From: Mytilus edulis
Lineage: Eukaryota
NCBI RefSeq assembly: GCF_963676685.1
Contig: NC_092344.1
Location: 60,388,001-60,452,000, forward strand
Direction: 5' to 3'
DNA length: 64,000 bases
Shown one piece after another: positions 17,283-63,417 of this stretch (the stretch's first letter is position 1; each line of letters opens with the position of its first letter). The notes below the pieces were generated by a model. The model was not told the DNA's origin. It saw only the letters and a list, made by a program, of their open reading frames with translations, and did no database searches. Both the position numbers and the translations under genes were made by a program.

Positions 17283-17985
17283 TATACTACCGCAAACGCA
17301 TTCAGTTTCCGGACAATAACTTTAGTTTTAGCGAATGGATCTTTGTAAATTTTCACCAGAAGGTTCAATACCACTAAAGGAAGGTAGGGATTGATTTTGG
17401 GGGTTATGGTCCCAACAGTTTTGGAAATGGGGGCCAAAAAGGGGGCCCAAAACAAGCATTTTTGTAGTTTTCAAACAATAACTTGTGTTTAAGTGTATGA
17501 ATCGGTCTAAAATTATACCACAAGTTTTCATACTATGAAGGGATAGTTGGTATTAATATTGAGGGTTAAAGTCCCGATAGTTTAGGAATTTCGGCCAAAA
17601 AAGGGGGCCCAAAACAAGCATTTTTGTAGTTTTCAAACAATAACTTGTGTTTAAGTGTATGAATCGGTCTAAAATTATACCACAAGTTTTCATACTATGA
17701 AGGGATAGTTGGTTTTAATATTGAGGGTTAAAGTCCCGATAGTTTAGGAATTGCGGCCAAAAAGGGGGCCCAAAATAAGCATTTTTTGTAGTTTTCAAAC
17801 AATAACTTGTGTTTAAGAGTATGAATCTATCTGGAATTATACCACGAGTTTCTATACCATGAAGGAATAATGTAGTATGGACTTTAGGGTGTTATGGCTC
17901 AAAATGTTCTGGAATTAGGGGCAAAAAAAGGGGAAAAACTATTATTTCTGGTCAATTGACAATTTAGACAATTTAAAAGGAGTGT
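17283..17985 (+). mobile_element. Partial HINE/DINE-1-like Helentron derivative with about 3 copies of a ~163-bp repeat
   Basis: Starts TATACTACCGCA (compare the subTIR TATACGACCGCA of 58716-60695); units start near 17430, 17593 and 17755. Confidence 0.7.
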
Positions 17986-18789
17986 ATATTAAATGATATG
18001 TTTAGAAGAAGATGAACCGAGGAAGATGTTAGTACATAAATTTAAAATGTTAAATAAACAAAAACAACGATTCTCTTTCTAATCTTTAACCCCTTCCCCC
18101 GACCCCAAATTTAAATTCGATACCCAAATAGTCCCTTTATATAGGGATAAATATGCCAAAAAATTGTAATGAATTTCATTGAGTCTAAAACTTATTTAAC
18201 TCTAACAATAAAAACTGGGCGCCACGAAATAGCCGAAATATGGCGCTTAAAAGTGACGTTAAAACGCCATAATCGATCCATTATTCAGATTATAGCACAG
18301 TAAGAACAAAGAAATTTTACCCATGTCATGTGTTAACATGTACAATTCACAAATTATATAAATTGACTTAACCGTGGATTGACTCTATATTAGAGTGATT
18401 GTCCTTAAATGACGATGTGGTTATAATAATGATGAGAACAATAAAAGTGGGAAACTGCAAACATTTATAAATCTGAAGCGGTTTTGTCTATGTACAAGTA
18501 TAGATTACGATATAGAAATTATAAAAGATCGGAAGGAACCGTGTAGTAGCAAATAATGACAAGATTAGGTTTCCAAATTGAAAATAAGGTCAACCGTGAC
18601 AACGATCGACTCCTCGTATCTGTATGTGACTGTGAGAGTCTGGCTTGTTGATGTTTACTTTACGTCCACTGGCAAATATTTCATGCATATTCTGCACGAA
18701 GGGTTATGATGAGGTCAACAGAATAGAAAATAATGGGGTTAATCTATAATAATTGAGGGCTGGAGGGGGGGATAGATAGCAGGGGGAAA

Positions 18790-18848
18790 CAATCTCCCAT
18801 ACAGACAGAGTTATCGTCCTTTCCTAACTCTGTCTGTATGGGAGATTG
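18790..18848. mobile_element. 59-bp perfect foldback with CAATCT termini and 9-bp TSD
   Basis: AGGGGGAAA|CAATCTCCCATACAGACAGAGTTA-11 nt-TAACTCTGTCTGTATGGGAGATTG|AGGGGGAAA. Confidence 0.9.
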
Positions 18849-19253
18849 AGGGGGAAATGACAAAAGAGTTATTTCCCTTTGCAAAATGGTTTTGTTCTTT
18901 TCAAATCTCAAACTTTTCATCAAGTTTATGAAACTGTACACAATGCTTATAAGTAAGAATTTATGTAGCTTCAATTTTACTTTCCTTAAGTAGTGCAAGC
19001 GGAAACATCATGGACTCATTCCCAATTTATTTTGTTTGTTCGATTATCTTTAAAACTATCATGCAGTTCACACTAAGAGACCGACAGTGAAATGGCTGTT
19101 TAGCCAGTGAAGGTCGTTAACAACTTTCACCGTCATCAAAATTAAGAGAAAAACCGAAAGCAGCAAAACATGCTCAAGAAGACTAACAAGAAAATGGAGT
19201 CATTGAATTCGTCCGAATTATCTACTGTATATAAGACTCCAAGTGAACTATTA

Positions 19254-19371
19254 CAATCTAATTAAAATTAAATTTCTCACTCGCTCATTTTTTAATGCTT
19301 GGTCGCTGCGTGGGAACAGCGACACAAGCATTAAAAAATGAGCGAGTGAGAGATTAATTTTAATTAGATTG
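19254..19371. mobile_element. 118-bp foldback with CAATCT termini and 9-bp TSD
   Basis: GAACTATTA|CAATCTAATTAAAA...TTTTAATTAGATTG|GAACTATTA; near-perfect arms of about 54 bp around CGTGGGAA. Confidence 0.9.
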
Positions 19372-20065
19372 GAACTATTATAACACGTTATTGGATGATA
19401 TTACAATCCACGTGAATGGTATATAGATTGTTGGTATATTGTGAAGTTAGCCATTGTGTTGATTTCCGACAGACTCTCAACACAGACGAACTACATCTGT
19501 GAGAGCTGGTTCTGGGCTTTACATGATGGGGGGAAACTAGCTGCATGTGACAATTTCTAGGATGGTACATGGCATTGCTGCCGATATAGAGGCAGGCCGG
19601 GATCGACTGACACCTATAGAATATCAAGACACTCTCTAATTAAATTTAATAAAGAAAACATCAAAATAAATACAATATAATACAATACAATATATTGAAG
19701 TCAAAATAAGTTGAAAACAATGATAAAATACTGCAAACAATTCAAGTTAAATACCAAATAAAAACAATAGTAATTACTGTTAAAATAAACCTGAATTAAG
19801 ATATTAGTTACTTATAAACTTTTTCAAAATAAAATTAAAAGAAAAATAATTTTAAATCTAAATTATTTTCAAAACCAAGAGACTCACCTAGAATATCAAG
19901 AAACTCGCTATTAATATCATAGCGGCTTGATCAGTTTATATAATAAGTTTTGAATGTCCTAGTAACCCTAAACTGACTGTAACAAATAAAAGAATTTTGC
20001 TGACGTAGGTTGACCGTTGTCCGAACTTTTAAGATGTTTTATTTAAACTTTGCTAAACATATAAC

Positions 20066-22392: not shown

Positions 22393-24382
22393 TTATATAA
22401 AAAAAGTTATTAAACAATGTTTCCCCCAAGAGTCCAGCTGTTTATTAATCAGTCTGATAAATTTGCACAAATGATTCAACATACTGATGTTTCTAGTATT
22501 CATCAAATCATGAAATTTCAATATGTTTGGTCTATTTAGATAATATGGTTTCAAAAACTTTTCTCTATCATGATTAAATTTCGAACATTTAAAAATATAG
22601 TGGAATTCATCCCCAATATCTCCTGAATTACATAGTTTACAATTTCGATTTTCTCTAGGTACATTTTTCCACCTTCCAGTTTCAATAGGAAGTTTATGAC
22701 TGAGTATCCTGAATCTACAAAAAGTAATAATATTTTTATCATCTAGGATCTTAAAATAGTTTTCTCTTTCAGCATTATCTTTGAATAGACGATAATTAAT
22801 AGCTTTTGGCGATTCTAATAATATAGAGTGCCAATTTTGTTTGAATTGGTCTACAACACTAACTTTAACCTTATGATATAACCATGTATTACTAACAAAG
22901 TACTGTGCATTCCAAACATATGACAGTCCACAACTATCTAGAATAGATTTTATATTATTAATCCATGGAATGTTCATCCCATACTTTTTATATGCATATT
23001 TATACAAAATAACAGGAAGTTTTTCTTGCTTTCCACACATAAGTTTCGACCAGTAATTTAAAATCCGCAATTTGATATCAATTTCCAAAGGATATCTTCC
23101 AAGTTCTCCATAAATCATGAAATCTGGCGTTGACTTCTTTACATTTAACAAAATTTTACAGAATTTAAGGTGGACCCTTTCAATAACAGAATTATTGCCG
23201 ACTCCCCAAACTTCACTTCCATGCAATAAAATAGGCTTGACAATTTTATCGAAAAGATCGAGTTGGCATTCTATAGATAAATTATGTTTTCGACCTTTTC
23301 GGATAACATCGTACATAGCGTGTGTGGCTTTTTCTGTTTGTGCCTTTTTTGCCTTAGAAAAACTTCCTGTTCTAGAAAAAATAACACCAAGGTACGTAAA
23401 CTCATTTACAATTTCTAAAACAGTATTATTATATTTAAATTCTAAATTTGATAATGGTCTACCTTTTGAAAAATCTACAATTTTGCTTTTATTTACATTA
23501 ACCTTCAATTTCCAAAGTTCACAATAGTTATACAAAGAGTCAAGCTGCTTTTGTAAGTCATTTTTTGACTCTGCCAAAAGAGCTGTGTCATCTGCATACA
23601 GAATCAGAAACAATTTTAAATAGTAGTCTAGTTCAATTTCTATATCATCGGATACTGTTTTTAACCCTTCTACATCTTGTTCTTTTAAAAAATGTTCAAG
23701 ATCATTAATATACAGAGAAAATAATAAAGGTGAGAGGCTTTCACCTTGACGTACACCGACATTACAAGGAAAATACTCTGAAAATACACTACCATCAAAA
23801 ATTCTAGATTTAATATTACTATACATATTTACAATGATATCATACATTTTTCCACTGATAAAATTCTCCAGAAGTTTTTGCCATAAACCAGATCGCCAAA
23901 CTGTGTCAAAGGCTTTTGCAAAGTCTATAAAAGCACAAAAAAGTTTTTTCTTTCGCATCTTCAATAGTTCAAAAAGAATATGTAGGACAAAAATACTATC
24001 TATGGTTGAATAGCCTTTTCTAAATCCTGATTGATTTTCATTTAACAATAAGTAATTTTCCAAAAAAGTGGATAGTCTTGAATTTAGAACTGAGGTAAAT
24101 AGCTTTCCCATGCAGCTAAGAATTGTGATAGGTCTATAATTTTCTGGTTTTTTTGTATCACCTTTATTTTTATAAAAAGGAATAATGTTACCAACTAACC
24201 ATGCTTCTGGAATTTTACCGGAATCGAAAACAATATTAAAAAATTGAACATAAATAGGCATAAAAATATGGCATGTGCTTTTAATATATTCGTTAATAAT
24301 TTTGTCATCTCCACAAGCCTTTCCATTTTTTAAATCTTTAATACAGTTAAATATTTCTTTTTCTGTTATGATACTATTAAGA
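22393..24382 (-). mobile_element. LINE A (RTE-X-like) ORF2, 3' part: reverse transcriptase and C-terminal zinc knuckle
   Basis: PENYRPITILSC, FIDFAKAFD, GVRQGESLSPLLF, LYADD, YLG, PIETGRW..CKLC..DEFH..C; the frame stays open upstream of the listed ATG to the insertion at 24382. Confidence 0.95.
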
Positions 24383-26921
24383 CTACTTGAGACTTTTTTC
24401 AGTGAAAATGGTATATCTGGACTCCAAACCGTATCACAAAAAACTCTTGAACACCTAAATACGTTTTTGTTGTTATTTATACTATTGTATGCTGATGATA
24501 CAATAATTTTAGCTGAATCAGCAGCAGCATTGCAAAAGTGTTTAGATGTATTTGAACAATATTGTAATATATGGAAACTATCAGTAAATGTTGAAAAAAC
24601 TAAAGTGATGGTATTCTCTAAAAGAAAGTACGCATTGATTGATAATTTTAAACTATATGGTTCAATTATTGAAAGAGTGGAGTCGTACCCGTATCTTGGT
24701 TTGCTTTTAAACCAAAACGGGAAATTTGTAATAACAAAAAAGAAGTTAGCAGAACAAGGACAGAAAGCACTTTATGCTCTATATAGAAAGATTAGGAATA
24801 TATCTATTCCAGTAGATCTACAGCTTAAGCTATTTGATTCTTTAATTGATCCTATACTTTTATACGGGAGCGAAATTTGGGGATATGAAAAATTAGACAT
24901 ATTGGAAACGGTGCACTTGCAATTCCTAAAGAAGGTGCTCTCTGTCCGAAGATCAACGCCAAACTTCATGGTGTACGGCGAAACAGGTAGATATCCACTA
25001 GACATACATGTAAAATTACGTATACTTAATTTTTGGGTAAAATTACTCTCGAATGATTCTAAACTGTCTAGTATTATGTACAAGTTATTGTATGAAATGA
25101 TTTGTTCAGGAAATATGCAATCAAAATGGTTATTAAATGTGAAATCTATACTTAATGATGTTGGCTTATCGTTTGTATGGGATAGCCAAGAAGTTCTTAG
25201 TAAAAATAGTATAAATTAAACTGTCAATTGTTCTTGAACAATTGAGAGGTCTTTCCTTTTGTAATGTAAAATACATGTTCTTATAGATGTAGAATGTATT
25301 GAAAAGGTCAAGGTCAACCGTACAAAGCTTGAAAACACACTTAAAATCCATTATATGAGGTTAAAAACACTAAATTCGCTATCTGGGACATGACCTTGAC
25401 CTTTGACCTTTTGACCTTTGTCAAGGTCATTAGTCCCCAATGTCATTGCAAAAGACCCCATGGGTCTAGGACCTTTGGTTATATAGTAAAAGCTGATTTT
25501 GTCTTTTCAGAAACCTAAAACAGGGGTTATGCCCCTTATTAAAAGGTCAAATCTCTTTGGTCAAAATGTAACAAAGTTGCGCCGTAATGACCCAAACATT
25601 TTCCACTATTTAAAACTTCTGTAAGTATAATGGTTTCTGAGATTATCCCATAACAAGGTGTTAGGTCAAAGGTCAAGGTCAACATACAAATTTGACCTTG
25701 AGGTATTTTTCAAAGATACATGAATTGATGATGATTGGTGAAGATCCTAGGTGTCTACGACTTACGGTTTCTGAGTTTTGGTGGCCAACCGACACCGGTT
25801 AATTTTCATAGGGGCATAACCCTACCAATGAGTCGTTGAATCTTTTCGATCCAAATGTAATGAAGAACCGGGGTCTGGTCCTGAACAAATTTCACCCTTT
25901 GTTTTTTGTCTACCTATTACGGTTACGGTGTTGGAACGATAACAAGGTTTTTGGGTTTCGGAGGGATTACTCCGAACCGACAAAATATTTCGACTCACAG
26001 GGTGAGTTCCAGAAAGGTATTCATGACACCTATACAAAGTGTGAATATGAAAGCAACACGTCTTACGGTTAACGCGGCTAAATTTGTCAAAGTTTAACGG
26101 AAGAATAATAATAATAAACAAAAGAAATACAGTAAGGTCTTTCCCTTTTGTAAAAGGAAAGACCTTAAATATTATGTTAAACAAATCTGACAAGACCAAT
26201 TTATACAAAAATGGCACAGTATGGCTGAAAGTGCCTCAAGAGGGGAACTTTATTTATCATTTAAAAGGGATTTCTGTCTTGAAGGCTACTTGATGAAACT
26301 AAATAAACAACGCAGAGTACACTTGAGTAAACTGCGATGTTCAAATTTAAAATTCCCTATAGAAGCCGGAAGATGGTTAAATATACCTCGTGAGGACAGA
26401 ATATGCACATTATGTGACATGGGTGTAATAGGAAATGAATTTCATTATCTGCTAGTATGTTGTAACCCTAATATTGAAAGAATTAGAAAAATACATATAC
26501 CAAGATACTATTTTTTTAACCCAACTGAGGACAAGCTATTTGGTTTGCTATACTATTGTAATATAAAAGTGCTCAATAATGTTGCATTATTTTTGCAAAA
26601 AATCATGAAGTATTTTTGATAAAAGAAACTGTTTAGTACTTACCTAATTCAAGTTGTGTGTTATAATCCAATTAATCATATGATATGATATATATATATA
26701 TATATATATGTCATGATATGTGTATTTGTTTGGATCGTTTAAATCACGTGTTAAACAACCGTATGTTACGGTGTGTTTGATGACTTATATTAAATTGACC
26801 TGTATATATGTTTATTTCAGTTTTGTTCTGTTATTATACCACTTCTGTCAAGCTGTATATTATGTATATCTGCCTCTTGTAACAGTGTAAACTGTCAGAG
26901 TGTACAATAAAATCTAATCTA
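24383..26921 (+). mobile_element. LINE B (RTE-X-like, 5'-truncated) inserted antisense into LINE A
   Basis: LYADD, YLG and YGETGRYPL at 24383-25216; continues KYYVKQI*QDQF...PIEAGRW..CTLC at 26167-26619; AATAAA plus (AATCT)2 tail; TSD ATTAAGA at 24376-24382 and 26922-26928. Confidence 0.92.
25220..26166 (-). mobile_element. HINE/DINE-1-like Helentron derivative inserted in LINE B
   Basis: 5' hairpin AAGGTCTTTCC..GGAAAGACCTT next to (AAT)n; subTIR AGGTCTTTCC at about 25247; 3' stem-loop CAATTGTTCTTGAACAATTG; GACCTT-rich core; inserted in an A-run. Confidence 0.85.
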
Positions 26922-27915: not shown

Positions 27916-28261
27916 GCGGAAAGTTATAAGTCTGGTATGTTTTGATTCTTTTTTTATAATCAACGTTTACAAAATGCTCAACAAAATGAAATACAAACAA
28001 AATATATTAAAAATATAATAATTTCTGATTTAACAATTGTATTTGTACGTTTATTTCGCATTTGTAATATTTAACATATACACCTGCAGGGATAAACATT
28101 TTAATTATTCCATTCTGTCATTCACACGGCAATTACTGCCTATTTTTAGATGTCCGTTATATAGTGTTATCGTTATTTTATGTTCGCCTTTGGCTTAAGA
28201 TGACCAGTTCATGTAATATAGCCACCAGGGACATGTTATTTACGGTTCATTTTTATTCCAG

Positions 28262-29828
28262 CTTTGGTTGAAGACACAAAGAAAGATGTACCAATCAAAA
28301 GATCAAAGAAAGCAAGAATATTCTAAATGTAAGAGAATCATAACGAACGACACGAAGCGTTTTAATATGGCGGGAAAGTGCGAGAATAAACATAGTAAAG
28401 CAGACGTTATCAGAACTAAAACAGATAAAGTTACAATGAAACGACATCCAGAATGCAAGAAATCAGAAAGTAATAGAGACAAGACAAACAGAGACAAAAG
28501 AGATTTAGATAAATGGAAATTAAGTTCTAAGCATTCTCGGAAAAGGTCATTTACAATTATTTCATTGGCGGATATGTGTACGAAAACAATTCTTATGAAG
28601 GCATGCTCAAAACCGTATACGGAAATTCTGGTCAATATACAAATTGATAAAACTATTTTACTAAAAGACAATTACTGTCAGGATGCCAAGACAGTCAATG
28701 TTAGGGACAGTATTAGTAGCATTGATGATTATTGGTTAAACCGAAAAACTGACACTAACGTCTTATGTCAGAAAACAAAATGGACGGACAAATCAAAAAG
28801 TTCGGTTTCGGATATTTCGACACCGAAAAGCTTGACTGTAGATTACAAACGTAAACATTTGAATGAATGTGAAAAATCAACGAAACTAGATAGTCATTCA
28901 ATTAGTAATGATAAAAAATCTCTCAGGGATACAGAAAGTTTTCACAAGAAATCTCATAAAATGCATAATACCTCGGGCAATAGCAATGTCAGGTCTCAGG
29001 AATCTAAAAGCAATTGTGGACGGACTTTACTGAAATCTCAGGAATCAAATAGCAATTGTGGACGGACTCTATTAAAATCCCAGGAATCTAATAGCAATTG
29101 TGGACGGACTCTATTAAAATCCCAGGAATTGAATAGCATTTGTGGACGAACTTTGTTAAATTCTCAGGAATCTAATAGCAATTGTGGACGGACTATACTG
29201 AAATCTCAAGAGTCCATTAGCAATTTTGGAAGAAATTTACTGAAATCTCAGGAAGTCTTTAATGAGTCTGATCGAAATATTTTTGCCGTGTTAGGCGCAA
29301 AAGCACTCGGGGAGGCAGATAAATGGGCGGAAACTACCAAATTTAAAACAGAACCAGTTGATATCTCTTTTGACAATTCGACTTCATTGCCTACATGTAG
29401 TAAGTCGTCCGAAAATAAGTCGGAAAAATGGACAGAAAAAATAAAAGTTAAGACTGAATCAATTGATAATTCGTATGGCAATTTAAATTCATTTACAAAT
29501 CCGTCCATAGATAAATCAAATTTTGAACTCCGTATCGAAACAACTCGGGAACATTGCTCAGTAGGGTCGTCTAGTCCAATACGCCAAACTGCTGAGAAAA
29601 ATGAAAATGACGTTACTTCTGATTACGAAGGATCGTCGACTGGTCTCCCATCAGAAGACGAAGATATCAAAGAAGAAGCTTTAGAGCCAAAGAAATGCAG
29701 TTCTTTGCAGACTGACATACAGCCAGAATTTGATGAAGACCTTCCGATGTTAATCAGTCCTCAAAGAAAAAAGATGAAGTTAGAAGAAAAGACTACGTGT
29801 GCACAAAGGAAAACCTCAACAGATAGTT
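28262..29828 (+). CDS. Large exon of an orphan gene encoding a disordered K/S/E-rich region
   Basis: 1.6-kb open frame in AT-rich DNA; acceptor TTTTATTCCAG| at 28261; donor |GTAAGT at 29829 (phase 1); start codon or upstream exon not determined. Confidence 0.7.
28994..29254 (+). repeat. Coding tandem repeat, 42 bp x 6 plus a partial unit (SQESNSNCGRTLLK)
   Basis: TCTCAGGAATC..AGCAATTGTGGACGGACT.TA.T.AAA repeated in frame. Confidence 0.95.
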
Positions 29829-30504
29829 GTAAGTATATAGCTATTGTTAATACGTTTATTAAATATTGTCATATAAGAGTGAGTGTGCCGATTTACTAGC
29901 TGCTTTACAGTATGTATGCATTTTTTATACAATTGAATCTTTGCTATTCTATTGGGTATAACCCACACCACGTGGTGTTGACATTATCTTTCATATCGTG
30001 TGAAAATCGGTAACCATTTTTAAAGCACTCGCACTATTGATCACTATTGAGGCATAGTAATTTTTGTATCACTATGTGTAGATTGATAGATTTGTATACA
30101 TCAAACATGTTTATTGTATTTTGTATATCAGTAAATAAATACTTTAGTTTATTTATCATGATTATTATTTTTGAATATAGCATAATTGTTATTTTTGAAT
30201 ATAGCATAATTATTATTTTTGAATATATCATATGTATTTATATTTACTGTATTGAAAGCAGATTTTGTTTCTTTATTGATATGAAAGCAAGTGACGTAAT
30301 TAAACGTTACACGAGTTAATCCGTTAGTCCAATATGTAGATAAGCTAGGTGACCGACGATTTAAGTTTAAATTCTGTATTTAAGTTGACAACAAATTCTC
30401 GGCATACGTAACAACTCATGATAGGTTGCCGATAAAATATCTTTACAAGAAATCGAAAGTTCTATTTATAGGTCAAGCATACATGTTATCCCATGCCGGC
30501 ACGT

Positions 30505-33890: not shown

Positions 33891-36193
33891 GGATTATGTA
33901 CCCCTGTGTTGCTTCAATGCTAAACATATGGAAATTTTAAAGAAAATCCACAGCCTTCATCCTTGTTCTATCATATTTGGCAATTTGATGACCGATAGAT
34001 ATAGGATTATTGCATGCAGTACTAGCATTGATTTCCTTAAAACAAGTTTATTAATGTAGTTTTTGGTTAAAACAAATAAAAATATGGACCAAATCAAGTA
34101 CACCTTTTAGGGTGCGCTTGACTTTAGTTACTCTGCACCAGGAATTTACAGGTTCGTTTTTTGTAAAAAAAAATAAACACTAGCACATCATTGAAAAGCA
34201 AGTGAGTAATCTATGTTTCAAATTTTATAACAAAAATCTCTTTATTAAAGGCTGTGGATTTTCTATAAAAATCTTGGTTTATTTGCCCCAAAGTACTATT
34301 TTTCTATTAAATGCAATGCAACACTAAATAATAATTCTTTGCATAAAGTTTCCCACTAGTATATGTTCAAAGTGGCCTGTCTCTATTATTCACTATATCT
34401 GTAGTTTTGATACAATTGATGTTTAAAAAATTCGTACAAAAATGGCTACAGAAGGGTACACAAACCTTAATGATTTTTCAGTTATATGAACATACATATA
34501 ACAAAACATTTTTAGCTCACCTGGCCTAAAAGGCCATGTGAGCTTTTCTCATCACTTGGCGTCCGTCGTCGTTGTCGTCGTCGTCTGTCGTCGTTAACAA
34601 TTTTTCAAACATCTTCTCCTCTGAAACTACTGAATGGATTTGAATGAAACTTAGCATGATTGTTCCTTAGATTATCCTGCACAAAGTGTGTGCTTCGATT
34701 TTTGATCTGTCAAAAAACATGGCCGCCGTTACTTAAAATAGAACATAGGGGTCAAATGCAGTTTTTGGCTTATATCTCAAAAACGAAAGCATTTAGAGCA
34801 AATTTGACAGGTGTAAAAATGTTCATTAGGTCAAGATCTATCAGCCCTGAAATTTTCAGATGAATCAAACAAACCATTGTTGGGTTGCTGCCACTTAATT
34901 GGTAATTTTAAGGAAATTTTGCAGTTTTTGGTCATTATCTTGAATATTATTATAAATAAAGATAAACTGTAAACAGCAAAAATGATCAGCAAAGTAAGAT
35001 CTACAAATAAGTTAATATGACCAAAATTGTCAATTGACCCCTTAAGGGGTTATTGTCCTTTAATGACAATTTTTCACAATTTGTTGATCATATAAATTGC
35101 TAACTTTAAAAAATCTTCTCCTCTAAAACTACTAAACCAAATTCAACCAAACTTCAACTGAATGATCAGTAGGGTGTATAAAATAAAGTTTGAGCTTTAT
35201 TTTTTATTTCGTCAAAAAACATGGCCGTCATGGCTAAAAATAGAACACAGGGTAAAATGCAGTTTTTGGCTTATATCTCAAAAACTCCAGCATTTAGAGC
35301 AAATAAGACAAGAAGTTAAAGTATTTATTAGGTCAAGGTCTACCTGTCCTGAAATTTTCAGCCGAATTGGGTAACTGGTTTTTCAGGTATAATGCCCCTG
35401 AATTGATGATTTTAAAGAAATTTTGCAGTTTTTGGTTATTATCTTGAATATTATTATAGATACAGATAAACTGTTAATAGCAAAAATGTTAAGCAAAGTA
35501 AGATCAACAAATAAGTCAATTTGACCAAAATTGTCAATTGACCCCTTAAGGAGTTATTGCCCTTTAAAGACTTTTTTCACAATTTGTTCATCATGTTGAC
35601 TTACTTTAAAAAATCTTCTCCTTTGAAACTGCTGTATCAATTTCAGCCAAACTTAGGCTAAATGAGTTTCAGAGTATCTAGTATAAATTTTATATTTCAT
35701 TTCCTTGTATGTCAGAAACATAACTCCTATGGCTAAAATAGAACATAGGAGAAAATGATTTTTTTTGTTGCTTTTGAAGAAAATAGGACGATTCAAAGAA
35801 CATTTAAATAAATTGAAAAGCCAAAATAATCATTGATGAGAGATTTAACCAAAAAAATTATGGTGAGCGATTCAGGCTCTTGAGAGCCTCTTGTTTTTAC
35901 TTTTTATGAGTATTCATTGAAGAAATGAATTTATAACACGCGATAAGGAATGTTGTATAAAGTTTGCACTTGCTACTGTCTACGTATTCATCATGTTTAT
36001 AGATCGGTTAAAAACCCAAAACGAATATTACGTAATGGAAATCTAGGCGATAGCAATACACCGGAATGCCCTCACGGTAATCCGCTGTAAAAATGGGAGT
36101 TATGGGCAAAATATTTTACCTTGTATCATAGGGGAAAACACCGAAAAGTCCGAACATCTGACACAAATTCCATAACCTCGCCCAAGTACATCC
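33891..36193. mobile_element. Old Kolobok-like non-autonomous DNA transposon interrupted by a HINE
   Basis: TTAA|GGATTATGTACC...GTACATCC|TAAA; its first ~450 bp has an inverted, diverged copy at about 37015-37460. Confidence 0.45.
34513..35893 (+). mobile_element. Complete HINE/DINE-1 (CvA/pearl-like) Helentron derivative
   Basis: T-run|AGCTCACC..hairpin..GTGAGCT, (GTC)n microsatellite, about 2.3 internal ~500-bp repeats, subTIR GGTGAGC, 3' hairpin AGGCTCTTGAGAGCCT, T-run. Confidence 0.92.
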
Positions 36194-37014
36194 TAAAATA
36201 TGAATTCAGAAATTTCGTATGATAATTATCTCATTTCCCTAGACACGCGTTTTAAAGAACAATTATACTTTAACGACCATATTTAAGTTTTGAGTTACTT
36301 AGTTTCGGAGTCATATATATTATTTATTAAAAATAAGGGTTTTTTAAAATAATTATTTAGAAGGTCCATGTACATGATGTACTACTTTATGTAATTATAT
36401 CAGTGGTCATATTTAGTATTTAATATTGGTCATATTTGGAATTTAATTTATGTCATATTGAGTAATTAATATATAGATTTACTGTAGGACACTTGCTTTC
36501 ATATCTCTTAAATCTGACAAAATCTGCACTCAATGTACAAGTTAGAAACGTTTTACAGCAGATTCCAGCGAGTATGGAGCTGCAGGTAGATTCTTTGGTT
36601 AGCTTCCTTGCTAGCTCAACCATGAAATCATTATTAGGTAAGGTACACAAGCCTTTGGGTGGAGTCAATAGTTAAACAGAGAACCAATCAGAACTAATGA
36701 CATAATATAAACATTGTAAAACTAGTTTTACAAGTCAGTTTAAAAATAAGTTTTTAATCTAAATTTAAGATTTATTGATAAGTATAAGCAAATTCACAAG
36801 CATGTTGTAGGTGTGTTTGATTTGCCAATTTTATTTCAATCAATTACTCAGTTCATTTATAAATACAGTTATGTGAATGTACTTTACAATTGTACAATCA
36901 CGGCGTAAATATCCTTATGTTGCCTTTGAATAACTGCAATAGTATAAAAACAGCAAAGATAATGATTAAGAGATCGGCCATTTTGTACATATACAAAGGA
37001 GAAACTTCGAGCAA

Positions 37015-37460
37015 GCATTAATATTTATAGTTGCATTGCATTTTAAAAGTTAAACGGGATTTTGTGGCAAATAAACCAAGATTTTTGTAAAAAATCCACA
37101 TATATTTTTGTTATAAAATTTTAAGCATATATTAATCACTTGATTTTCTATGATGTGCTAGCGATTATAGTTTACAATAAATCCTAAACAACCTTTTAAA
37201 TTAAATTTAAAAAATCGTGCTAAGTCACGAAAGTCGAGCGCACCCTAGAAGGTTTACTTGAATTGGTCCATATTTATATTGTTTAAACTAATATCTAAAT
37301 TTATAAACTTTTTTTAAGGAAATCATTGCTAGCACTGCTTGCAATAATCCTTCATCTATCAGGTACTAAATTGCCAAATTTGAGAGTACAAGGGGAAATA
37401 CTGGATTTTCTATAGAATTTCTATTTGTTTAGCATTGAATCAACACTAAATATTATCATC
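37015..37460 (-). repeat. Inverted diverged copy of about 33891-34345
   Basis: For example AGTCGAGCGCACCCTA vs TAGGGTGCGCTTGACT, and GGCAAATAAACCAAGATTTT vs AAAATCTTGGTTTATTTGCC. Confidence 0.8.
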
Positions 37461-38992: not shown

Positions 38993-40288
38993 AATAACAT
39001 ATACGAATGACACATGCACACAACATATATCAATTTAATATATACAATAAAAGACCATGCACTCGTTTTGAAATCCATGATTTAGTTTGTAAATTATATA
39101 TATTATATATAAATGTTTAATGTAATGATTTTCAGTTATAAGATATTTAGTATGCTAGCTATATCTTTGCAATATGTTATCTTTTTAACAAATGTTTACC
39201 ACAAATCACTTTTAAGACTGTATAGTTGTAATCTATATAGGTAAGTAGTAAATTAAGAATTGAATATTATATTTTGAATACAAGTGACGACCGAATTTTG
39301 CTTCGTTTTTGTTAAAATAAATGCTATCAGGGATTAATCAATAGTTTGAAATGGATAATTATGTAATTTTAAAATGTCACCGTGCCTGGCGATTTTGGTT
39401 TGACGATTTTATGCTATGCAATTGAAAATGTTGTTTTGACCAAGTGAGACATGATGCACTCCTTAATATCTGGATCCTTTGAGACCTCCAGTCCCCTTTT
39501 TAAATCCACCGCTGGTCATGTCACTTGTGTTCCAATCGCTGAATACTTAGTCACTACTATATTGATGGTTATAATAAATTGATATAGCATTAGATATACA
39601 CTAGCTATTATGACTGTAAATTAAAGGGAGATATATTATGTTTTTTGTATATATATGTCCTTGTATTTAATAAAATACAAAAGATTAACATGTTGTTTGT
39701 AGTGTATCGATAGTGACACATGCTTCGAAATGGTTTAACCGATTTTCATATATGATAGTTTGTAAACAGGTCTAATATAAAACATTGATTTATACATTAA
39801 TTACAGGTCAAATTCAATTTTCACGATGTTAGCTGTTCTTGTTGTTTTAAGTTATAGAGCTTTCAGTAGCAAATTTTTTTTTAAAGTTATTTCCCTTTGA
39901 ACAAAAATTTAAAAAAAATATTTATGTCATTTTTGGTCTCTTATTTTTATTTTGAGTTATTTCCTTTTGAACAGAAATGGTGTAATTTTAAATAAGTAAG
40001 ACAGTCTGTGCATGATTGTATGGAAGCACACACCATTCAAACCTACAAAGAAAAATAACCTTTCATGATTTTTCTTCTAATATGGTTAAAAAAAAAACCC
40101 GTTACGTTATACTTAATTTATCATCACTGCAGATTTTTTAAAGTCAAATGACCCCGGATTTTGTACATTATAATATATATGGATTATTTCAGAGTTTTAG
40201 TAAATATGCTTTAATGAAGGGTAAGTTTCAGAATGTTTAATATATTTGCCATGCATTAATTACTTTCTTTAGTTAACAGGTCATATTC

Positions 40289-43200
40289 ATGTCCATGGAG
40301 TTAATAAAACTATACAACTCTACATTTACAGCACCAAAAGATCCAAAGACAATTTCAAATAATTTGAAAATAACAGAAAAGAAACAACCAGATAAAACTA
40401 AACGGAGCGACTTAAAAGACATAATTAGAACAAAAGAATGTACATCATTATCGAAAAAAGCAGTTCATGAAAAAAACAGAAGTGATGATTTAAAATCAAT
40501 CAAGACATTGAGCTTTGAATCATCAAGGACAAATTTAGATACTAATTCCGAAAAATTAACACAGAAAGCTAATTCAAGCGAAAAAATAAAACAGTCTGAA
40601 AAAAGTAACCCGTCAAAATTCAGACACATTTCTACAAAAAATGATACAAAGAATTTGTCTAGTTATCAGAAAAGAGCAGAGAAAAATTCGAGTAACAAGT
40701 CAAATGTGACTTTAAATGGTAATGTGATTAAAGAGGACATTAAAACGCAAAATGGACCCTTTAAACCTGATGCTGGTGTTCATTTGGAGTATAAACACAA
40801 CATTAAGTCAAAAGAAATAGAATGTAAAATGCAGGCTGTCGCAGTTGATATTTTCAAGCTTGCGAATGAGTTTCAAAAAGTGAAAAAGTCATACTCAGAA
40901 ACAACAAAAACCGAACCGGAGACTATAAGATTAGATGCAATCGTGCGAGATGAGTGCAAAGATAAAATTTTGTCGAAAAATATTGTTGACAAAGCAGTTA
41001 CCATAAAGAATAAATCAATTATTTCAGACGTCCAAAATAAAATGAAAATATCAACTTTGATAGATGAATGCAAGAGAAACATAACTACTCATGGAAACAA
41101 GACCAATGAAATAGCACGGTCTAAAAGCACTGACAAGTCGAGTACATGTAAGAATTTAAACAAGAATGAGCGGAAAGGAGAAAGAAAAGTAGATGATAAT
41201 CATAGAGTAACTAATTCACGTGATCACAACAGGGATAATAGAGTTTTAAATGAAAGAAGTCGAAAGCATGATGTAAAATACAATGGTCGAAGATGCGACG
41301 AAAAGTATCATGAATGTCGGAGGTACGACGAAGAAAAAATGCGAAGATGCGATGGAAATCGTAGATATGCTAATAGAGATTTTCTTAGAGCTGATGATGC
41401 CACTAAACTTGTTGGAAGGAATGAAAGTGGTGCATTTGATAAAGATGCCATTTATAAACCGTATGAATCTGGAACACCGATCCGCATGTCTACTGAAAGA
41501 GATGAATATAAAATCTTAGGTAATGAAGAAAAGCAAAGCTGTCAAAAACAAAATGAAAGAAATGAAAACTCATCTGCTTTAATACAAATGAACAATACTG
41601 AAGATATAAACCAGCGGGAAAGTGATTCTATAATAGCAATTTGTCAGAAATCGACGGATGAATCAAAAATATGGAAAGATTCAGAAAATGATTTGCAAAC
41701 ATTGGAGGGAAAAAGTATTAAAACAAACGTTTCTGTTGAAGAGAATCACCCATCAGGGGAAAACGTACTAGTTTTGAGAGCCCCTTCAAAGGACACCGAG
41801 GAGACAAAAGATCCAATAACAAATTCAGCTTTAAACGAAAATTTCACCTCAATGGATGTAACTGGAAACGAATCAGACCTAGTATCAACTAACCCCACAG
41901 AAGAGGAAGACATGCTGTTAGATATGAGCGATGAACATGAACTTACTTCAGGTAGATCTGATACTAATGAATTTTTCGGAGAACACGACACATGGTTATC
42001 TACTATGTCTGATAATAGTTCTTTGCAGCAAAGCAACATGCAACAACTTGACACACATTTGAATACAAATAGCAAAATTACTCTCGAAACCGACAATAAG
42101 TCCACGGAAATTGTCAAACAGAATTTAGTAACTGTTTCAACGAGCGTTCAACCACATGAAGACGCTTTATCGAACCAAATTGATCATAAAAATGTCAGTA
42201 TTCCTTACAAAGATACCGAGACGACTCATTTCAGCAAATTGACTAAACGGTCATCATTTGACACTCATAATATAAAGGAATCTTCATTGGAAAACCCAAT
42301 TAAAAAGGAAACATTGCCACCAACGCCTACCAATAGTGAACAAAACAATGAACAATTAATTAATTTGCAACATAATGTCAACAAACTAACTACAAGTCGT
42401 CCAACGGATGCCAGTAGTAAATGGGAAAAGATAACACCTACGCTATCGGCAAAGGAAGAAATTCAAGAGTTATCCCCAATGGAGGAAATCCAAGATTTAT
42501 CACCAAAAGAAGAAATTTTTGTATTAAAGTCAGCTTTTATCTCCACCTCCGTAGATGATGCTCAGGATGTTTGTACTGTGATATCTAACGAAGTTGTTTC
42601 AAATACAGAGAGTAGTACAGCACCAAAGCATCTTGTCAAATTTTCTGACATTAATGTTGTGAATATTGCAACTTCTGAGAATCCAACACCGGGGTTGGTT
42701 GATACCACAACACCTAATAATAACGCACAAAAAAATATTGATAATATCTTAATGGCGAAAGCAAACCCTGTTGCTATCAAAACAGATGACAACGTTGGAA
42801 AGCAAACTGATATTGTAGTATCTGACAAAAAGTTTCAGAAGCCTGTTTGTATAACAACGTCCAATACAAATGTACCAACTAAACCCCTTGATAACATGAC
42901 TATCACCAAAGATTCACAGAAAACTGATTATGCGACGACGACTGTCCAAAACGCTTTTGAAATAACAATTTTAGACAAAAATAATACATCAACTTCTGTG
43001 TGCATTCAAAAATACAAAAAGGATGTAATAACTGGTACACGAAAGATATCTGCTACATTCCGTGATATTAGTGAGAAGGTTCCAGTTTGTAACAAACCCG
43101 CTGTGAACGATGCACTGACGTCTGATCAAACATCAACTTCACACAATGACGTACCGAAACGAGTGTATACTGCAACACATGACGAAGAAGTTAACAAAAT

Positions 43201-44827
43201 CACAAAGTTGCCGAGCTTGGCTTCTGTCGATTTACAGACACATTCTTCTAAAACAACTAACAATGACGTATCACAGACACAGTGTAGTTTGAATTATGAA
43301 AAATTTATACCGGAATCTGTATGTGTCGAAACTTCTTCAAATAAACCGTTATCCACCATTTTAAATGAAAATGTAACTGGTGTCACTCTCAGCTCAATAT
43401 CAGTGAATGATCTTAAGAATGCAACACCGACTTCTGTAGAATCAGAAACATCTACCGACAATATGCCATGTAGTAGTGACATCCAGAAACAAGTATGCAT
43501 AACAGCAGATACTCTGGTGACTTCGTCAAAAACTGGAATCGCGGTTAAACAAGGACAAAGTGATGAAGAATATCCAGCAAAAAATAAAAAGGGAGATAAC
43601 GATGTAGTAGACCTGCTAGCTGAACACATTCCGAAGCAATCTCCATATGAAAACAAAAGGAAAATCAAACTTTTGACAAACACTTGTTTCTTATCGAAAA
43701 AAGTGAAAATTATACGCTCTACAATAAATAGACCAAGAATTAGACCAAAAATGAGCCCAGCAAAACGAAACATAGTTACTGATGCTAGTGATAACATTTC
43801 TGTCACCATTAAAAACGAAGACAAAGAAAAGAAAGATGTTAGGCAAAGCAAGACTGATACGGAAGGTAATAATGAGGTTAAGAAAAAAGATAGCGTAGTG
43901 ATAGATCTTACCGACGAAGAAAGTCCGAAAAAATCAAATAACTGTAAGAGAAAGATAGATTTAGAACCAGCAAGCGAATCTAAAGACAACAAACGTGGAC
44001 GAATTGAACAAAACAAAAGAAAAATCAAATCAAAAGTTACTATAGCAAAACAAAATGAAATTGCAAATCGTACTGATGACACTGGTCCGAAACAGATGAG
44101 AGACCGAAAAGATACTGATAAAAGAAGAACGACTGAAAGTAAGAAAAATTCAAAATATGAATCAGAGCGCAATTGTTACAAACGCATTGATGAAACAAAT
44201 AGAGATTGTAATTATCGTACAAGCACTAAAAGATCTAACAGTAAAGAGTATGACAGAAAATATGAAAGTTCGGAATACGATAGAAACTTTGAAAGGAAAA
44301 GAAAGTACGCTAATGAACACGAAGTGCCATCACATCTGATGATGAACCAACAACCAATGAATGATATTTCTTACGTCGGTCTGAAAGTTGAACCAACAAC
44401 TGCACATGCGCGATGTTTTAATGAGGTGGTAGGATATGCATATGATTTCATGCGCGGATACTGTGATTACAATGAAATTTCAAGTCAATACGTCACACCA
44501 GTTCGCCGATTTCGAACAAATCTTATGCGACAATTAAAAGCTACTTTTGACCGATATTTTTACGGACCAAATAATCCGTATGATCCGATTTATTCACTCA
44601 CAGGTCCTCAACCACGATTCCGAAACGAAGATATTATGATCAGGACAATATTACACACCATTAAAAAGCCACATATTCGTCGAGGCACAGATTGTCATAG
44701 TTGTCAGTTTGATGATGTCATAGGGTACGAAGGTTATAAAATTCCATGTTTTTGGGTTAAAGTTGAATTTCGCGAGGGTGAATTTTTACGTGCATTACCA
44801 ATACTTGATCGTTCCTATGCATATTGA
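40289..44827 (+). CDS. 1512-aa single-exon orphan protein: long disordered region plus a C-terminal aromatic/Cys/His-rich domain
   Basis: 4.5-kb uninterrupted ORF; acceptor AACAG| at 40279; AATAAA at about 44917; composition shifts sharply over the last ~150 aa. Confidence 0.8.
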   Translation: MSMELIKLYNSTFTAPKDPKTISNNLKITEKKQPDKTKRSDLKDIIRTKECTSLSKKAVHEKNRSDDLKSIKTLSFESSRTNLDTNSEKLTQKANSSEKIKQSEKSNPSKFRHISTKNDTKNLSSYQKRAEKNSSNKSNVTLNGNVIKEDIKTQNGPFKPDAGVHLEYKHNIKSKEIECKMQAVAVDIFKLANEFQKVKKSYSETTKTEPETIRLDAIVRDECKDKILSKNIVDKAVTIKNKSIISDVQNKMKISTLIDECKRNITTHGNKTNEIARSKSTDKSSTCKNLNKNERKGERKVDDNHRVTNSRDHNRDNRVLNERSRKHDVKYNGRRCDEKYHECRRYDEEKMRRCDGNRRYANRDFLRADDATKLVGRNESGAFDKDAIYKPYESGTPIRMSTERDEYKILGNEEKQSCQKQNERNENSSALIQMNNTEDINQRESDSIIAICQKSTDESKIWKDSENDLQTLEGKSIKTNVSVEENHPSGENVLVLRAPSKDTEETKDPITNSALNENFTSMDVTGNESDLVSTNPTEEEDMLLDMSDEHELTSGRSDTNEFFGEHDTWLSTMSDNSSLQQSNMQQLDTHLNTNSKITLETDNKSTEIVKQNLVTVSTSVQPHEDALSNQIDHKNVSIPYKDTETTHFSKLTKRSSFDTHNIKESSLENPIKKETLPPTPTNSEQNNEQLINLQHNVNKLTTSRPTDASSKWEKITPTLSAKEEIQELSPMEEIQDLSPKEEIFVLKSAFISTSVDDAQDVCTVISNEVVSNTESSTAPKHLVKFSDINVVNIATSENPTPGLVDTTTPNNNAQKNIDNILMAKANPVAIKTDDNVGKQTDIVVSDKKFQKPVCITTSNTNVPTKPLDNMTITKDSQKTDYATTTVQNAFEITILDKNNTSTSVCIQKYKKDVITGTRKISATFRDISEKVPVCNKPAVNDALTSDQTSTSHNDVPKRVYTATHDEEVNKITKLPSLASVDLQTHSSKTTNNDVSQTQCSLNYEKFIPESVCVETSSNKPLSTILNENVTGVTLSSISVNDLKNATPTSVESETSTDNMPCSSDIQKQVCITADTLVTSSKTGIAVKQGQSDEEYPAKNKKGDNDVVDLLAEHIPKQSPYENKRKIKLLTNTCFLSKKVKIIRSTINRPRIRPKMSPAKRNIVTDASDNISVTIKNEDKEKKDVRQSKTDTEGNNEVKKKDSVVIDLTDEESPKKSNNCKRKIDLEPASESKDNKRGRIEQNKRKIKSKVTIAKQNEIANRTDDTGPKQMRDRKDTDKRRTTESKKNSKYESERNCYKRIDETNRDCNYRTSTKRSNSKEYDRKYESSEYDRNFERKRKYANEHEVPSHLMMNQQPMNDISYVGLKVEPTTAHARCFNEVVGYAYDFMRGYCDYNEISSQYVTPVRRFRTNLMRQLKATFDRYFYGPNNPYDPIYSLTGPQPRFRNEDIMIRTILHTIKKPHIRRGTDCHSCQFDDVIGYEGYKIPCFWVKVEFREGEFLRALPILDRSYAY

Positions 44828-51410: not shown

Positions 51411-51465
51411 CTACAACAAAGTATAGTCGGGTATTTCCAATAATAAATAAGATACTCTGCAAAAT

Positions 51466-51574
51466 CAATCTAATTAAAAACCGATCATCTCTCATCGCTC
51501 CTGTTTCTGATATGTCGCGTGGGAGCGACATATCAGAAACAGGAGCGATGAGAGATCGGTTTTTAATTAGATTG
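51466..51574. mobile_element. 109-bp foldback with CAATCT termini and 8-bp TSD
   Basis: TGCAAAAT|CAATCTAATTAAAAACCGATC...GATCGGTTTTTAATTAGATTG|TGCAAAAT; centre GCGTGGGAGC. Confidence 0.9.
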
Positions 51575-52416
51575 TGCAAAATTAAAGAAGAATGAATCAA
51601 ATCAAAATCACAAACAGGTCCATATTTATTATATAACATTGGACATAATATATACATCTGTGTTTATGACTCCACCGATTGGTTAAAAGCATGGACTTCC
51701 GCCCAACGTGTGGAGGTTCACATTATATTTAAACGTAAAACAAAAAAATGTGCAAAGAGAATTATATTTGTAAGAACTGCTTATTAGTTCTGATGAGAAA
51801 CGCCATTCGGCCGACCAATATGGTTGCTATTAACTAGAATCCTATTTAACACGCGAATCTGAGGATGAAATAATTTTAAAAAAAAATAACAGTGTACACC
51901 AAATGAAACTGGAATGTTTCTTCAAATGTACTTCATTAGTGTTCATGTTGTAATTTTACATGTACTTTGGTTCTTCGTCAAATTATCATCATAAGTAGTC
52001 CAAACGAGAAGAATTTTTCTACAGTTTATTAAAAAGTGTGTGGTGTCATTGCGGCATATACTATGCATGGGTATATCAATCATCCATTAGACCCCAGTAA
52101 ACCTCGTGTTCAATTTAGATTGCTTCTTAATTCATTTTTTTCAATTCACTTTCAAAAAGTATTTTACTTTTGGCGGGATTTTTTTTAATTATGTAATTAC
52201 AAAATATATAAACTATTAAAATGTTTTCCTATACAAAATTTACTTAGAGATGAATTAAAATAGAACACAATGATTTAAAGAAAACTGTGTTGTTAGAAAT
52301 AAATAAACGCCACCGATCGTTTTGAATATATACATGTACTAAAGTTGGTTTCGGCAGCTTTTAGGCTTACCAAACGTCCACAAGATAGTTATTTCAAAAT
52401 AAGTATGTAAAATTCT

Positions 52417-54177
52417 TTAAGAACTGTAAACGTTTGAAAATTTTGGCTTTGTGATCACGTCGTATAAAGCTACAACTCCCTTGAAACTGGCAGACACTAC
52501 AAGCAATCGACTTGATCTTTGGTCAAAATAGATCCCAGCAGGTCCATCCACGCCATCAAGTTTGCTCAAAAGAGATTTACTTTGTTGTCCATCTGAAGAT
52601 GTTACCAAGATATTTTGCGAGAGATTTCCGACCACGAACACGTATCCCTCTCGATTGTAGGCAAGGGCACACGGATATTTGAGAGACGGGTCGCGAAATT
52701 TCCATATCTCGTTTCCTTCGAGATCGCAGCAGTATACTGTGTTGTTAATCTCGTCTGAATAATACACGCAGTCGTTGTTGGCATTGACGCAGTAGACTGT
52801 ATTAACTTTGGCTGGAACTGTTTGCAGAATTCTTCCACTCAGGTTCATTACCTGAATTTTATGGCCATTGCAGCCTACGAACAATTTTTCGTCGTTGTAG
52901 AAAATAGCCCAGCACTGGTCCGTCATCTTGATGTTTTGGTATATAGGGTAGCCATTACTGACAACATCAAATATCTGTACAATGTTGTCCTCTGGGAAGC
53001 TGACTGCAATTCGGTCTCCATCTAGACGGGTTATATCATATGGTTTTCCGGTCACTCCAATATCCCTGTTGTGTGTTCCATCAATATTAAACATTATAAG
53101 CTTCTTATTATCACTCCAGTCGGCGAACAGAAGTTTTTCATCTGCTAATATTACACAGCCTCTAAGATCAATCGGTATTCTTGACTTCCGTTTACAAGTC
53201 TTGATCTTCTTTATCACTTTAAGCATGACTCTGTTTGGATCTGTTGTTTCAATTACCCGTGATGCAATGCTCTTAGTAGAGTTCCTATTCTCCGCCCTGG
53301 TTACGGATTCTGGGACTGCAGTAGGTGGAGGTTTTTCTTGGGTATCAATACTTCCAAAACTTTTAATATCGTTAGTCAGAGATATAATTCTTGTATTTAA
53401 ATGCAGGTACAGTTGTAAGTTTTCGCCTTCATTTTCCTTAAGAGTTGCTTCAATTACTCGTTTCTCTTTCGAAAACATCTTCTCCAATTTATTGGATGCA
53501 AGGAAAGTTTGGACACCAGAACCAATTTTCTTTATACATCCAGAAATTGTCTGAATATCAACTAGTTGCTGCTTCTTGGTGTCAATATCAAATAAAAATT
53601 GCGCGATATCTAAACTGTGCTTCTGTTCACCTACAATCAATTCGTCTAAAATGTCTTTTTCAAGCTTGTCCAGATGCTCATTAAGCGCTTTTCTGACATT
53701 TTTAATTTCCGACTGTAAAACATCTTTCTGTTCATTGAGAAGTTTGATATTGTCAGTACGATGACATTTGATTTTTTCTATTCTTTCTAAGACACTGATA
53801 AGATCGTCTTCCAATTTTGTAGAAGCAATCGATGCTCTCGGACTTTGAGATTCGTCATCAACTGGTTTTACATCACATTGGCGATGAGTGTCGGTGACGC
53901 AATTAACACAACACAAAGTCGAATGTGATTGGCAGAAAAAATCAAACTTCTTCTTGTGATCATAACACTCGGTTGTTAAGTCATTTAGAAACGGTCTTAG
54001 GAGAGGATAAATATCCTCGTTAAATGTAGTGTGGTCTTTTGACAACTTTGATGATTGATGGAGTTCCGCGCATTCTTTACATAATCCCTCCATGCAAACG
54101 GAACACCAAACCATTGCTTGTCGATGAGCCTTCCTTGTCTCGCATGGTCCGCAAAACAAGAATGGTGTACTAGCCAT
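52417..54177 (-). CDS. RING-less TRIM-like protein: two B-boxes, coiled coil and NHL-type beta-propeller (586 aa, one coding exon)
   Basis: CGPC..WCSVCMEGLCKEC..H..H; CYDH..FCQSH..CCVNC..H..C; heptad region; NHL-like blades (KPYDIT, YPCALAY, GPAGIYFD); acceptor TTTCCAG| 9 nt upstream of the ATG at 54177. Confidence 0.92.
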   Translation of the reverse strand: MASTPFLFCGPCETRKAHRQAMVWCSVCMEGLCKECAELHQSSKLSKDHTTFNEDIYPLLRPFLNDLTTECYDHKKKFDFFCQSHSTLCCVNCVTDTHRQCDVKPVDDESQSPRASIASTKLEDDLISVLERIEKIKCHRTDNIKLLNEQKDVLQSEIKNVRKALNEHLDKLEKDILDELIVGEQKHSLDIAQFLFDIDTKKQQLVDIQTISGCIKKIGSGVQTFLASNKLEKMFSKEKRVIEATLKENEGENLQLYLHLNTRIISLTNDIKSFGSIDTQEKPPPTAVPESVTRAENRNSTKSIASRVIETTDPNRVMLKVIKKIKTCKRKSRIPIDLRGCVILADEKLLFADWSDNKKLIMFNIDGTHNRDIGVTGKPYDITRLDGDRIAVSFPEDNIVQIFDVVSNGYPIYQNIKMTDQCWAIFYNDEKLFVGCNGHKIQVMNLSGRILQTVPAKVNTVYCVNANNDCVYYSDEINNTVYCCDLEGNEIWKFRDPSLKYPCALAYNREGYVFVVGNLSQNILVTSSDGQQSKSLLSKLDGVDGPAGIYFDQRSSRLLVVSASFKGVVALYDVITKPKFSNVYSS

Positions 54178-63182: not shown

Positions 63183-63417
63183 GTAAAAGCATAAAAATAT
63201 AGTATATAAGCCAATACACGTAAATAACAGTGCCTTGTGATGTTTCATAGCCTGATGGGTCAGGCGCTGTTAATTATCTGTATTGGCATACAGTCAGGCT
63301 ATGAAACATCACCAGTCGCTGTTAATTATGTGTATTGGCATACAGTCAGGCTATGAAACATCACAGGCGCTGTTAATTATGTGTATTGGCTTATATACTA
63401 TATTTTCATGCTTTTAC
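63183..63417. mobile_element. Foldback element with an internal 51-bp tandem duplication
   Basis: GTAAAAGCAT.AAAATATAGTATATAAGCCAATACAC is mirrored at the right end; GCTGTTAATTAT.TGTATTGGC occurs three times; no TSD. Confidence 0.8.

Follow-up and report, generated by a model that had tools for sequence, protein, structure and literature searches.

Tiny CAATCT-ended hairpins in Mytilus edulis as probable excision scars of helicase-encoding AcademH-type transposons

The window, the whole 64,000-nucleotide stretch of Mytilus edulis DNA that was analysed (G000:C1:60388001-60452000 of the 1.37-Gb genome on which searches were run), contains three short hairpins with CAATCT ends, each within a target duplication. 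The smallest, of 59 bp, was taken in a preliminary description to be a minimal transposable element. The locus raises the question of whether such a hairpin is a mobile element or what a larger element leaves behind.

Anatomy of the window hairpins

The 59-bp element at 18790-18848 has perfect 24-bp arms around an 11-nt centre and lies within an exact 9-bp target duplication, as direct inspection of the sequence confirms. Of the duplication lengths from 2 to 15 tested at this hairpin, none besides 9 bp is exact. Folding of the hairpin as DNA gives -26 kcal/mol (z -8.9), and none of 200 shuffles is equally stable.

Judged by sequence comparison, the hairpin consists of the outermost parts of both ends of a 14.4-kb transposon of AcademH type, which encodes a helicase, within the 9-bp duplication. 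Bases 1-36 of the terminal repeat of this transposon family (family A) are joined to bases 24-1, with one base in common. The 11-nt 'loop' corresponds to bases 25-35 of the repeat, and base 18825 is a 1-nt microhomology common to both retained ends. The features are as follows, with the full family-A copy at G000:C3:12658010-12672414 as the reference for the retained ends of the 59-bp hairpin.

18781..18789, unstranded: left copy of the 9-bp target duplication, matching 18849-18857 exactly
18790..18825, + strand: left retained end, bases 1-36 of the 61-bp family-A terminal inverted repeat, 36/36 identical to the full element
18825..18848, - strand: right retained end, bases 1-24 of the family-A repeat, 24/24 identical, overlap 1
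18849..18857, unstranded: right copy of the 9-bp target duplication, matching 18781-18789 exactly
19245..19380, unstranded: family-B hairpin of 118 bp (19254-19371) with a 9-bp duplication, from the sequence
51458..51582, unstranded: family-C hairpin of 109 bp (51466-51574) with an 8-bp duplication, from the sequence

The family-B hairpin retains about 62 and about 55 bases of a 105-bp terminal repeat, and the family-C hairpin 57 and 50 bases of a 94-bp terminal repeat. Comparison of the three hairpins bears out the earlier observation that only the first six bases are common to them, and the hexamer by itself shows no enrichment across the window (38 matches against 45.9 expected). The 59-bp hairpin is the smallest CAATCT-ended element within the window, as had been claimed, but not elsewhere, where family A has copies of 40, 43, 48, 52, 57 and 58 bp and a related family one of 34 bp.

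Contigs from three of four sequencing runs contain the right part of the 59-bp hairpin together with its right flank, so the hairpin is not private to the assembly. A joint across the site, whether from an empty or a long allele, was not found in the contigs of the four runs, which break at repeats.

The window also holds a single long TRIM-like ORF (52417-54228, - strand), whose 603 codons give B-box and propeller-like matches, overlapping LINE-type reverse-transcriptase ORFs on opposite strands (22393-24771, - strand; 24254-25219, + strand) and two open frames with no Pfam match, one of 1516 codons (40277-44827, + strand) and one of 560 codons that contains a 42-bp coding tandem repeat (28217-29899, + strand). 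Arrays of a 161-162 bp satellite-like unit lie in opposite orientation at 17304-17869 and 60016-60657, long nested inverted repeats at 33961-37393, and a fold-back made of 52-bp units at 63183-63417.

Long partners encode a transposase and a helicase

A DNA search with the 59-bp hairpin gives 74 genome matches. The short family-A copies range from 40 to 848 bp and have differing 9-bp duplications; further copies comprise one of 364 bp, one of 2,117 bp, one truncated end and a 14,405-bp element. In this long element the DUF6589 exons lie on one strand, and matches to DEAD, to Helicase_C and, weakly, to RecQ_Zn_bind lie on the opposite one. An A-run in its first exon is one A shorter than in the 2.1-kb copy, so the element may be inactive or hold an assembly error. 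Family-A copies are 98-99% identical, indicating that the family is young.

Searched at the protein level, the genome yielded 99 matches, from which 12 transposase regions were fetched. Three of these contain complete elements with CAATCT ends and 9-bp duplications, which define families B, C and D. In the other nine the ends could not be matched as pairs, one of them giving a single end of family A2. Families A2 and E are two further related families. The full-length elements are listed below.

Family A, G000:C3:12658010-12672414: 14,405 bp, 61-bp repeat, 9-bp duplication
Family B, G000:C6:92005075-92018473: 13,399 bp, 105-bp repeat, partner of the hairpin at 19254
Family C, G000:C2:92014456-92027668: 13,213 bp, 94-bp repeat, partner of the hairpin at 51466; a 383-bp non-autonomous form is common
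Family D: 11,788 bp, CAATCT ends, 9-bp duplication

Families B, C and D each encode a DUF6589 protein and a helicase. DEAD and Helicase_C domains accompany the transposase in A, B and C, and Helicase_C in D. Target duplications are of 9 bp in all four full-length elements and in most short copies, with some of 10 and rarely of 8. We also observed a family-E element of about 20 kb (G000:C7:57076640-57096766; L333, L334), one end of which lacks the outer ~30 bases. At G000:C13:1305504-1326542 (L168-L170), in a stretch of about 21 kb, satellite arrays surround a related transposase and helicase; its inverted ends, of about 330 bp, do not begin with CAATCT.

The DUF6589 transposase has conserved GDNLD, GDQ and D..E motifs. 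A structure model of the homologue P0001 (pLDDT 94), a scallop protein 48% identical to one exon, has an RNase H fold and matches Hermes, P and integrases. Its best matches are Hermes (Z 10.2, rmsd 6.4, 296 aligned) and the P-element complex (Z 10.0, rmsd 5.4, 295 aligned), which tie. A Foldseek search of the model against the PDB gave no match at E <= 0.001. Motifs and model agree with a DDD/E transposase of RNase H fold.

DUF6589 is presumably the Academ core, and the AcademH lineage of Academ DNA transposons was reportedly defined by Kojima in 2020. To judge from their sequences, the transposons described here fit this lineage. In the accessible portions of the respective papers, AcademH is marked by a helicase and 9-10 bp duplications (PMC10045372), DEAD and Helicase_C are named for it (PMC10799480), and an Academ expansion is reported in bivalves (PMC10294476).

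The preliminary description had suggested one transposase group behind the three hairpins, one not fitting cleanly with hAT, P or MULE. Both statements are supported: for each hairpin there is a partner of 13-14 kb that encodes a DUF6589 transposase as well as a DEAD/Helicase_C helicase, and these partners fit the already named AcademH lineage. An autonomous partner from a classified group is also what it had said would refute its own reading. That the hairpin is a minimal element of an unclassified transposase group needing only six terminal bases is very improbable: CAATCT ends are indeed common to unlike interiors, but each interior is the terminal repeat (61-105 bp) of a separate long family, and the helicase and 9-10 bp duplications fit AcademH.

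Retained arms stop at a fixed base

In the short copies of six families the joints vary, whereas the arms stop at a fixed base inside the longer terminal repeats, between bases 42 and 63 (A 45, A2 42, B 63, C 57, D 46 and E 59). This edge lies directly before CTCT or ATCT, that is (A/C)TCT, in every family. Among 470 arms, 164 are shorter, 214 end between four bases before the edge and the edge itself, 13 end one base past it, 9 end at edge+2 to edge+15, and 70 run on as long ends. For A-D, the edge positions and the tally come from one and the same data set; the samples of B, C and E are enriched for long arms by query design, which leaves the test for arms just past the edge unaffected. For A2, the limit of 42 was set down before the search, when four A2 hairpins had already been seen, and then held, with 0 of 40 arms at 43-57.

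The stop is sharp within single families. None of the 94 arms of the 47 short family-A copies goes beyond base 46 and 55 end at 41-46, in a repeat that extends to 61; four arms scored as 46 begin the terminus anew, base 7 of which is identical to base 46. For this tally 4 of 52 rows were dropped (two false pairings with a distant chance duplication and two A2 copies), one one-sided copy was set aside, and L041 and L078, which share a flank, were counted as two. Thirty-five family-C arms end at base 57 and 3 at 58, and in family E the numbers are 21 at base 59 and 0 at base 60.

This fixed stopping point likely marks an unusually long staggered cut. We put the probability at about two in three that the 59-bp hairpin is the repair scar of an excision in which one strand of the element is cut at the very terminus and the second strand about 45 bases further in. 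What is observed directly is the parent element with its two proteins, the stopping point and the varied joints; from them we infer the cut, and its strand polarity is taken solely from chemistry.

Alternatively, both strands might be cut at the inner (A/C)TCT in an alternative or faulty reaction, with the inside lost and the outer 42-63 bp joined as double-stranded ends. Exact edge-to-edge joints without microhomology speak for this (4 of 15 loci in one set, plus 5 family-E loci), and double-stranded ends would give exact blunt joints more readily than a pair of same-sense 3' overhangs would, a point against the staggered cut. The inner site could also serve as a second end, because the six bases after the edge repeat terminal bases 3-8 (6/6 in B, C and E, 5/6 in D and 4/6 in A). 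We nevertheless consider an inner double-strand cut unlikely, since no insertion starting at the inner site was found. The family-A inner 15-mer has 7 exact genome matches, compared with 125 for the exact outer 16-mer; six lie in long copies that have outer ends and the seventh is unrelated. The inner motif of B and C, with 814 matches genome-wide for the two together, lies inside a full outer end in all 42 loci examined.

Two long family-D copies are damaged where the inner cut is predicted. In one (L296, G000:C1644:72713) the five bases 44-48 are deleted, and in the other, at G000:C10:64735114, one end stops at base 46 and is followed by foreign sequence.

Joints resemble those of break repair

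The 47 short family-A copies have 42 joint types: 15 joints show 1-3 nt of microhomology, 7 are blunt and 25 have insertions, which exceed 10 nt in 11 copies. Among the 22 joints free of insertions, these 15 exceed the 39% expected to show microhomology (p 0.006). In L042 and L086 an arm is repeated in tandem. Foreign filler lies between the two arms in L034, L216, L235 and L379. By analogy with P-element excision scars, these joints look like products of break repair.

L086 (G000:C12:389396-390243) is 848 bp long and contains about 19 tandem repeats (43 bp or shorter) of the retained end within one target duplication, apparently a minisatellite born at a scar. Unrelated DNA of 60-900 bp is captured between the retained arms of L034, L216, L235, L236 and L379.

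Other copies are one-sided, being long at one end and stopping near the edge at the other (L017, L204, L205, L321, L345 and L349). They show that templated copying happens, and so lend some weight to a different account, in which the element is cut cleanly at its termini and the flanks copy the sister chromatid, stall at a fixed block such as bound transposase and then undergo end joining. Aborted copying with end joining is, in the accessible part of PMC2895639, the usual outcome after P excision. A stall should, however, smear, whereas the stops seen here are base-precise and both ends stop there together; synthesis lengths likewise vary in the P assay, as described in the same part of that source (PMC2895639). 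We regard stalled copying as distinctly unlikely.

No long and short pairs at paralogous sites were found among 475 ends. Contigs on the 2.1-kb copy (L031:996-3123) give a 41/45 joint in one run, with the matches swamped by an internal repeat, and contigs of two runs contain an empty-site joint across the whole of this copy, the target of which is a multicopy repeat.

Hairpins differ from a uniform MITE

The non-autonomous form of family C provides a standard for a mobile short element. Of 22 long family-C copies, 19 are 381-386 bp with full repeats, and this 383-bp form is a real, ordinary MITE that keeps the whole terminal repeat. The earlier suggestion that very little cis sequence is needed is thus not supported. 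The family-A short copies, in contrast, are uniform in neither length (40-848 bp) nor joint. Their lack of the inner part of the repeat and their many joints make the tiny hairpins resemble immobile repair scars, and the view of them as minimal elements does not stand.

Recurrent joints count against the scar reading, because a small mobile element would also give them: 45+42 is found in 4 copies and 57+50 in 7. In favour of the scar reading, repeat variants of family C (XX, XY and YY) recur among the hairpins with the same joints; the 56+48 joint is found in both XX and YY, and the 57+50 joint occurs with both polarities in XY (L129 and L149). Four 86-bp copies share the variant base G24, which is also present with many other joints, and seven 106-bp copies have no substitution in common.

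An A2 hairpin has multiplied with its host repeat (L071, L346, L347, L353, L356, L357, L358, L361 and L373). Three of these nine copies have a form shortened after multiplication (from 68 bp to about 55 bp); short arms can therefore also form secondarily, which counts against the scar reading.

The recurrent sizes of 86 and 106 bp, the shared G24 and this single case of later shortening are what would be expected if the hairpins were true mobile MITEs derived from a founder palindrome, with centres that later decay through palindrome instability. Six founders would then each need the same motif-defined edge, and a palindrome cannot yield one-sided copies. The association of G24 with other joints, the unshared substitutions of the 106-bp copies, the one joint with opposite polarity on the same asymmetric arms and the full repeats of the uniform family-C MITE all tell against such descent, and we judge it improbable.

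Possible base pairing around the edge

All six families have a stem of 5-6 bp in which bases near 12-24 can pair with bases around the edge: GATCTC:GAGATC in C, ATCTC:GAGAT in B, GATGTT:AACATC in D, ATCCTT:AAGGAT in E, CAGAG:CTCTG in A and GCAGAG:CTCTGC in A2. The partner of base 20 is the first base past the edge in B, C, D and E; A and A2 have a different register. Compensatory changes on both sides preserve two pairs between C and D and two more between C and E, with positions 21-23 unbroken. The probability of such a stem anywhere in shuffled sequence is 0.013 for A, 0.020 for D, 0.070 for C and 0.22 for B, by a statistic chosen after family C was seen. Single terminal repeats fold no better than shuffles (z +0.3 to -1.6). 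A stop at a fixed distance from the terminus was considered and rejected, as the edges are family-dependent and the 5' arm of the stem lies at 12-17 in A2.

The repeat of terminal bases 3-8 after the edge would, by analogy with the P element, allow looped-strand pairing here.

Discussion

The scar reading of the hairpins can be cast as a series of steps. The first would be a nick by the transposase at the terminal base of the transferred strand, a requirement of DDE chemistry. A RecQ-like helicase could then load at the 3' end so exposed and work its way inward; the 3' to 5' movement of RecQ helicases leads inward from a terminal nick on the transferred strand. The freed strand might fold, with bases near 12-24 pairing around the edge and the second cut falling 5' of (A/C)TCT. 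Unwinding by the helicase and a fold-guided cut are possible, and we hold them less firmly than the scar itself.

Each chromosome flank would retain a 3' overhang of 42-63 nt of terminal repeat, and the overhangs would be joined by microhomology end joining with trimming (36 + 24 in the 59-bp hairpin). Other outcomes might be templated repeats, captured DNA or joining after partial copying of the sister chromatid. The excised element would carry complementary overhangs, so a new insertion could regain full ends by gap filling. A scar without the inner repeat is predicted to be immobile.

On this basis we tentatively propose that AcademH excision is helicase-assisted and structure-guided: up to 63 bp of each terminal repeat would be unwound, a stem-loop would place the second nick, and the stagger would be set by the loop rather than by the protein and be the longest known for cut-and-paste transposition. 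If so, the tiny CAATCT hairpins would be a base-resolution record of excision chemistry and of mollusc end joining, pointing in six families to exact candidate cut sites, and further to a rule of base pairing and a helicase role. In such genomes, many a short palindrome flanked by a 9-bp duplication may mark where an element has left, and counting these as MITEs would then misread transposon history.

Comparison with known systems

The hairpins resemble MITEs in being short and non-coding, with inverted ends and a target duplication. They differ in being non-uniform and in lacking the inner repeat, which the 383-bp family-C MITE retains.

KolobokH also combines a DDE transposase with a RecQ helicase but, in the part of the source available (PMC9587614), has TTAA duplications and RR...YY termini and is reported from fungi. 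It was rejected because of its TTAA duplication (PMC9587614); the elements described here have variable 9-bp duplications and CA...TG termini.

The elements share with AcademH, compared by its described features in the partial accounts available, terminal inverted repeats, a DDE-fold transposase, a DEAD and Helicase_C helicase and 9-10 bp duplications. Those portions of the accounts give no cleavage sites or excision scars and mention the helicase only in a suggested link to duplication length; here the hairpins are read as scars rather than as elements. The literature searched, a set that lies outside Repbase and the defining AcademH paper, contained no account of Academ excision or of the role of the AcademH helicase; hairpins like these may already be catalogued there as non-autonomous elements, in Repbase or in the defining paper. 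The available parts of PMC5751038 and PMC12210899 add nothing on mechanism, and 12 of the 33 supplementary files of PMC10294476 have no Academ or CAATCT match, while the other 21 may hold library ends.

Among other cut-and-paste systems, hAT elements are not known to leave long overhangs, and as Hermes ties with P in the fold comparison, this counts against the staggered-cut reading. The P superfamily (THAP domain, 7-8 bp duplications, no helicase) was rejected as a home for these elements, which have 9-bp duplications, a helicase and no THAP match in the N-terminal exons scanned.

The P element is nonetheless similar in its scars, which retain part of each terminal repeat within an intact duplication, with microhomology or templated inserts, and derive from 17-nt overhangs at donor sites, according to the accessible parts of PMC2895639 and PMC5466332. 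Its transposase fold is also among the top matches of the modelled scallop homologue. In the P complex, as described in the part of PMC7776569 available, the transferred strand loops out and is base-paired to the 5' part of the opposite strand, and the 17-nt stagger is called unusually long; the P element also uses GTP, has a THAP domain and 8-bp duplications and lacks a helicase (PMC7776569). The stagger proposed here would instead be 42-63 nt, several times longer than the 17 nt of P if the reading is true, family-dependent and set by sequence, in elements with a helicase and an internal stem.
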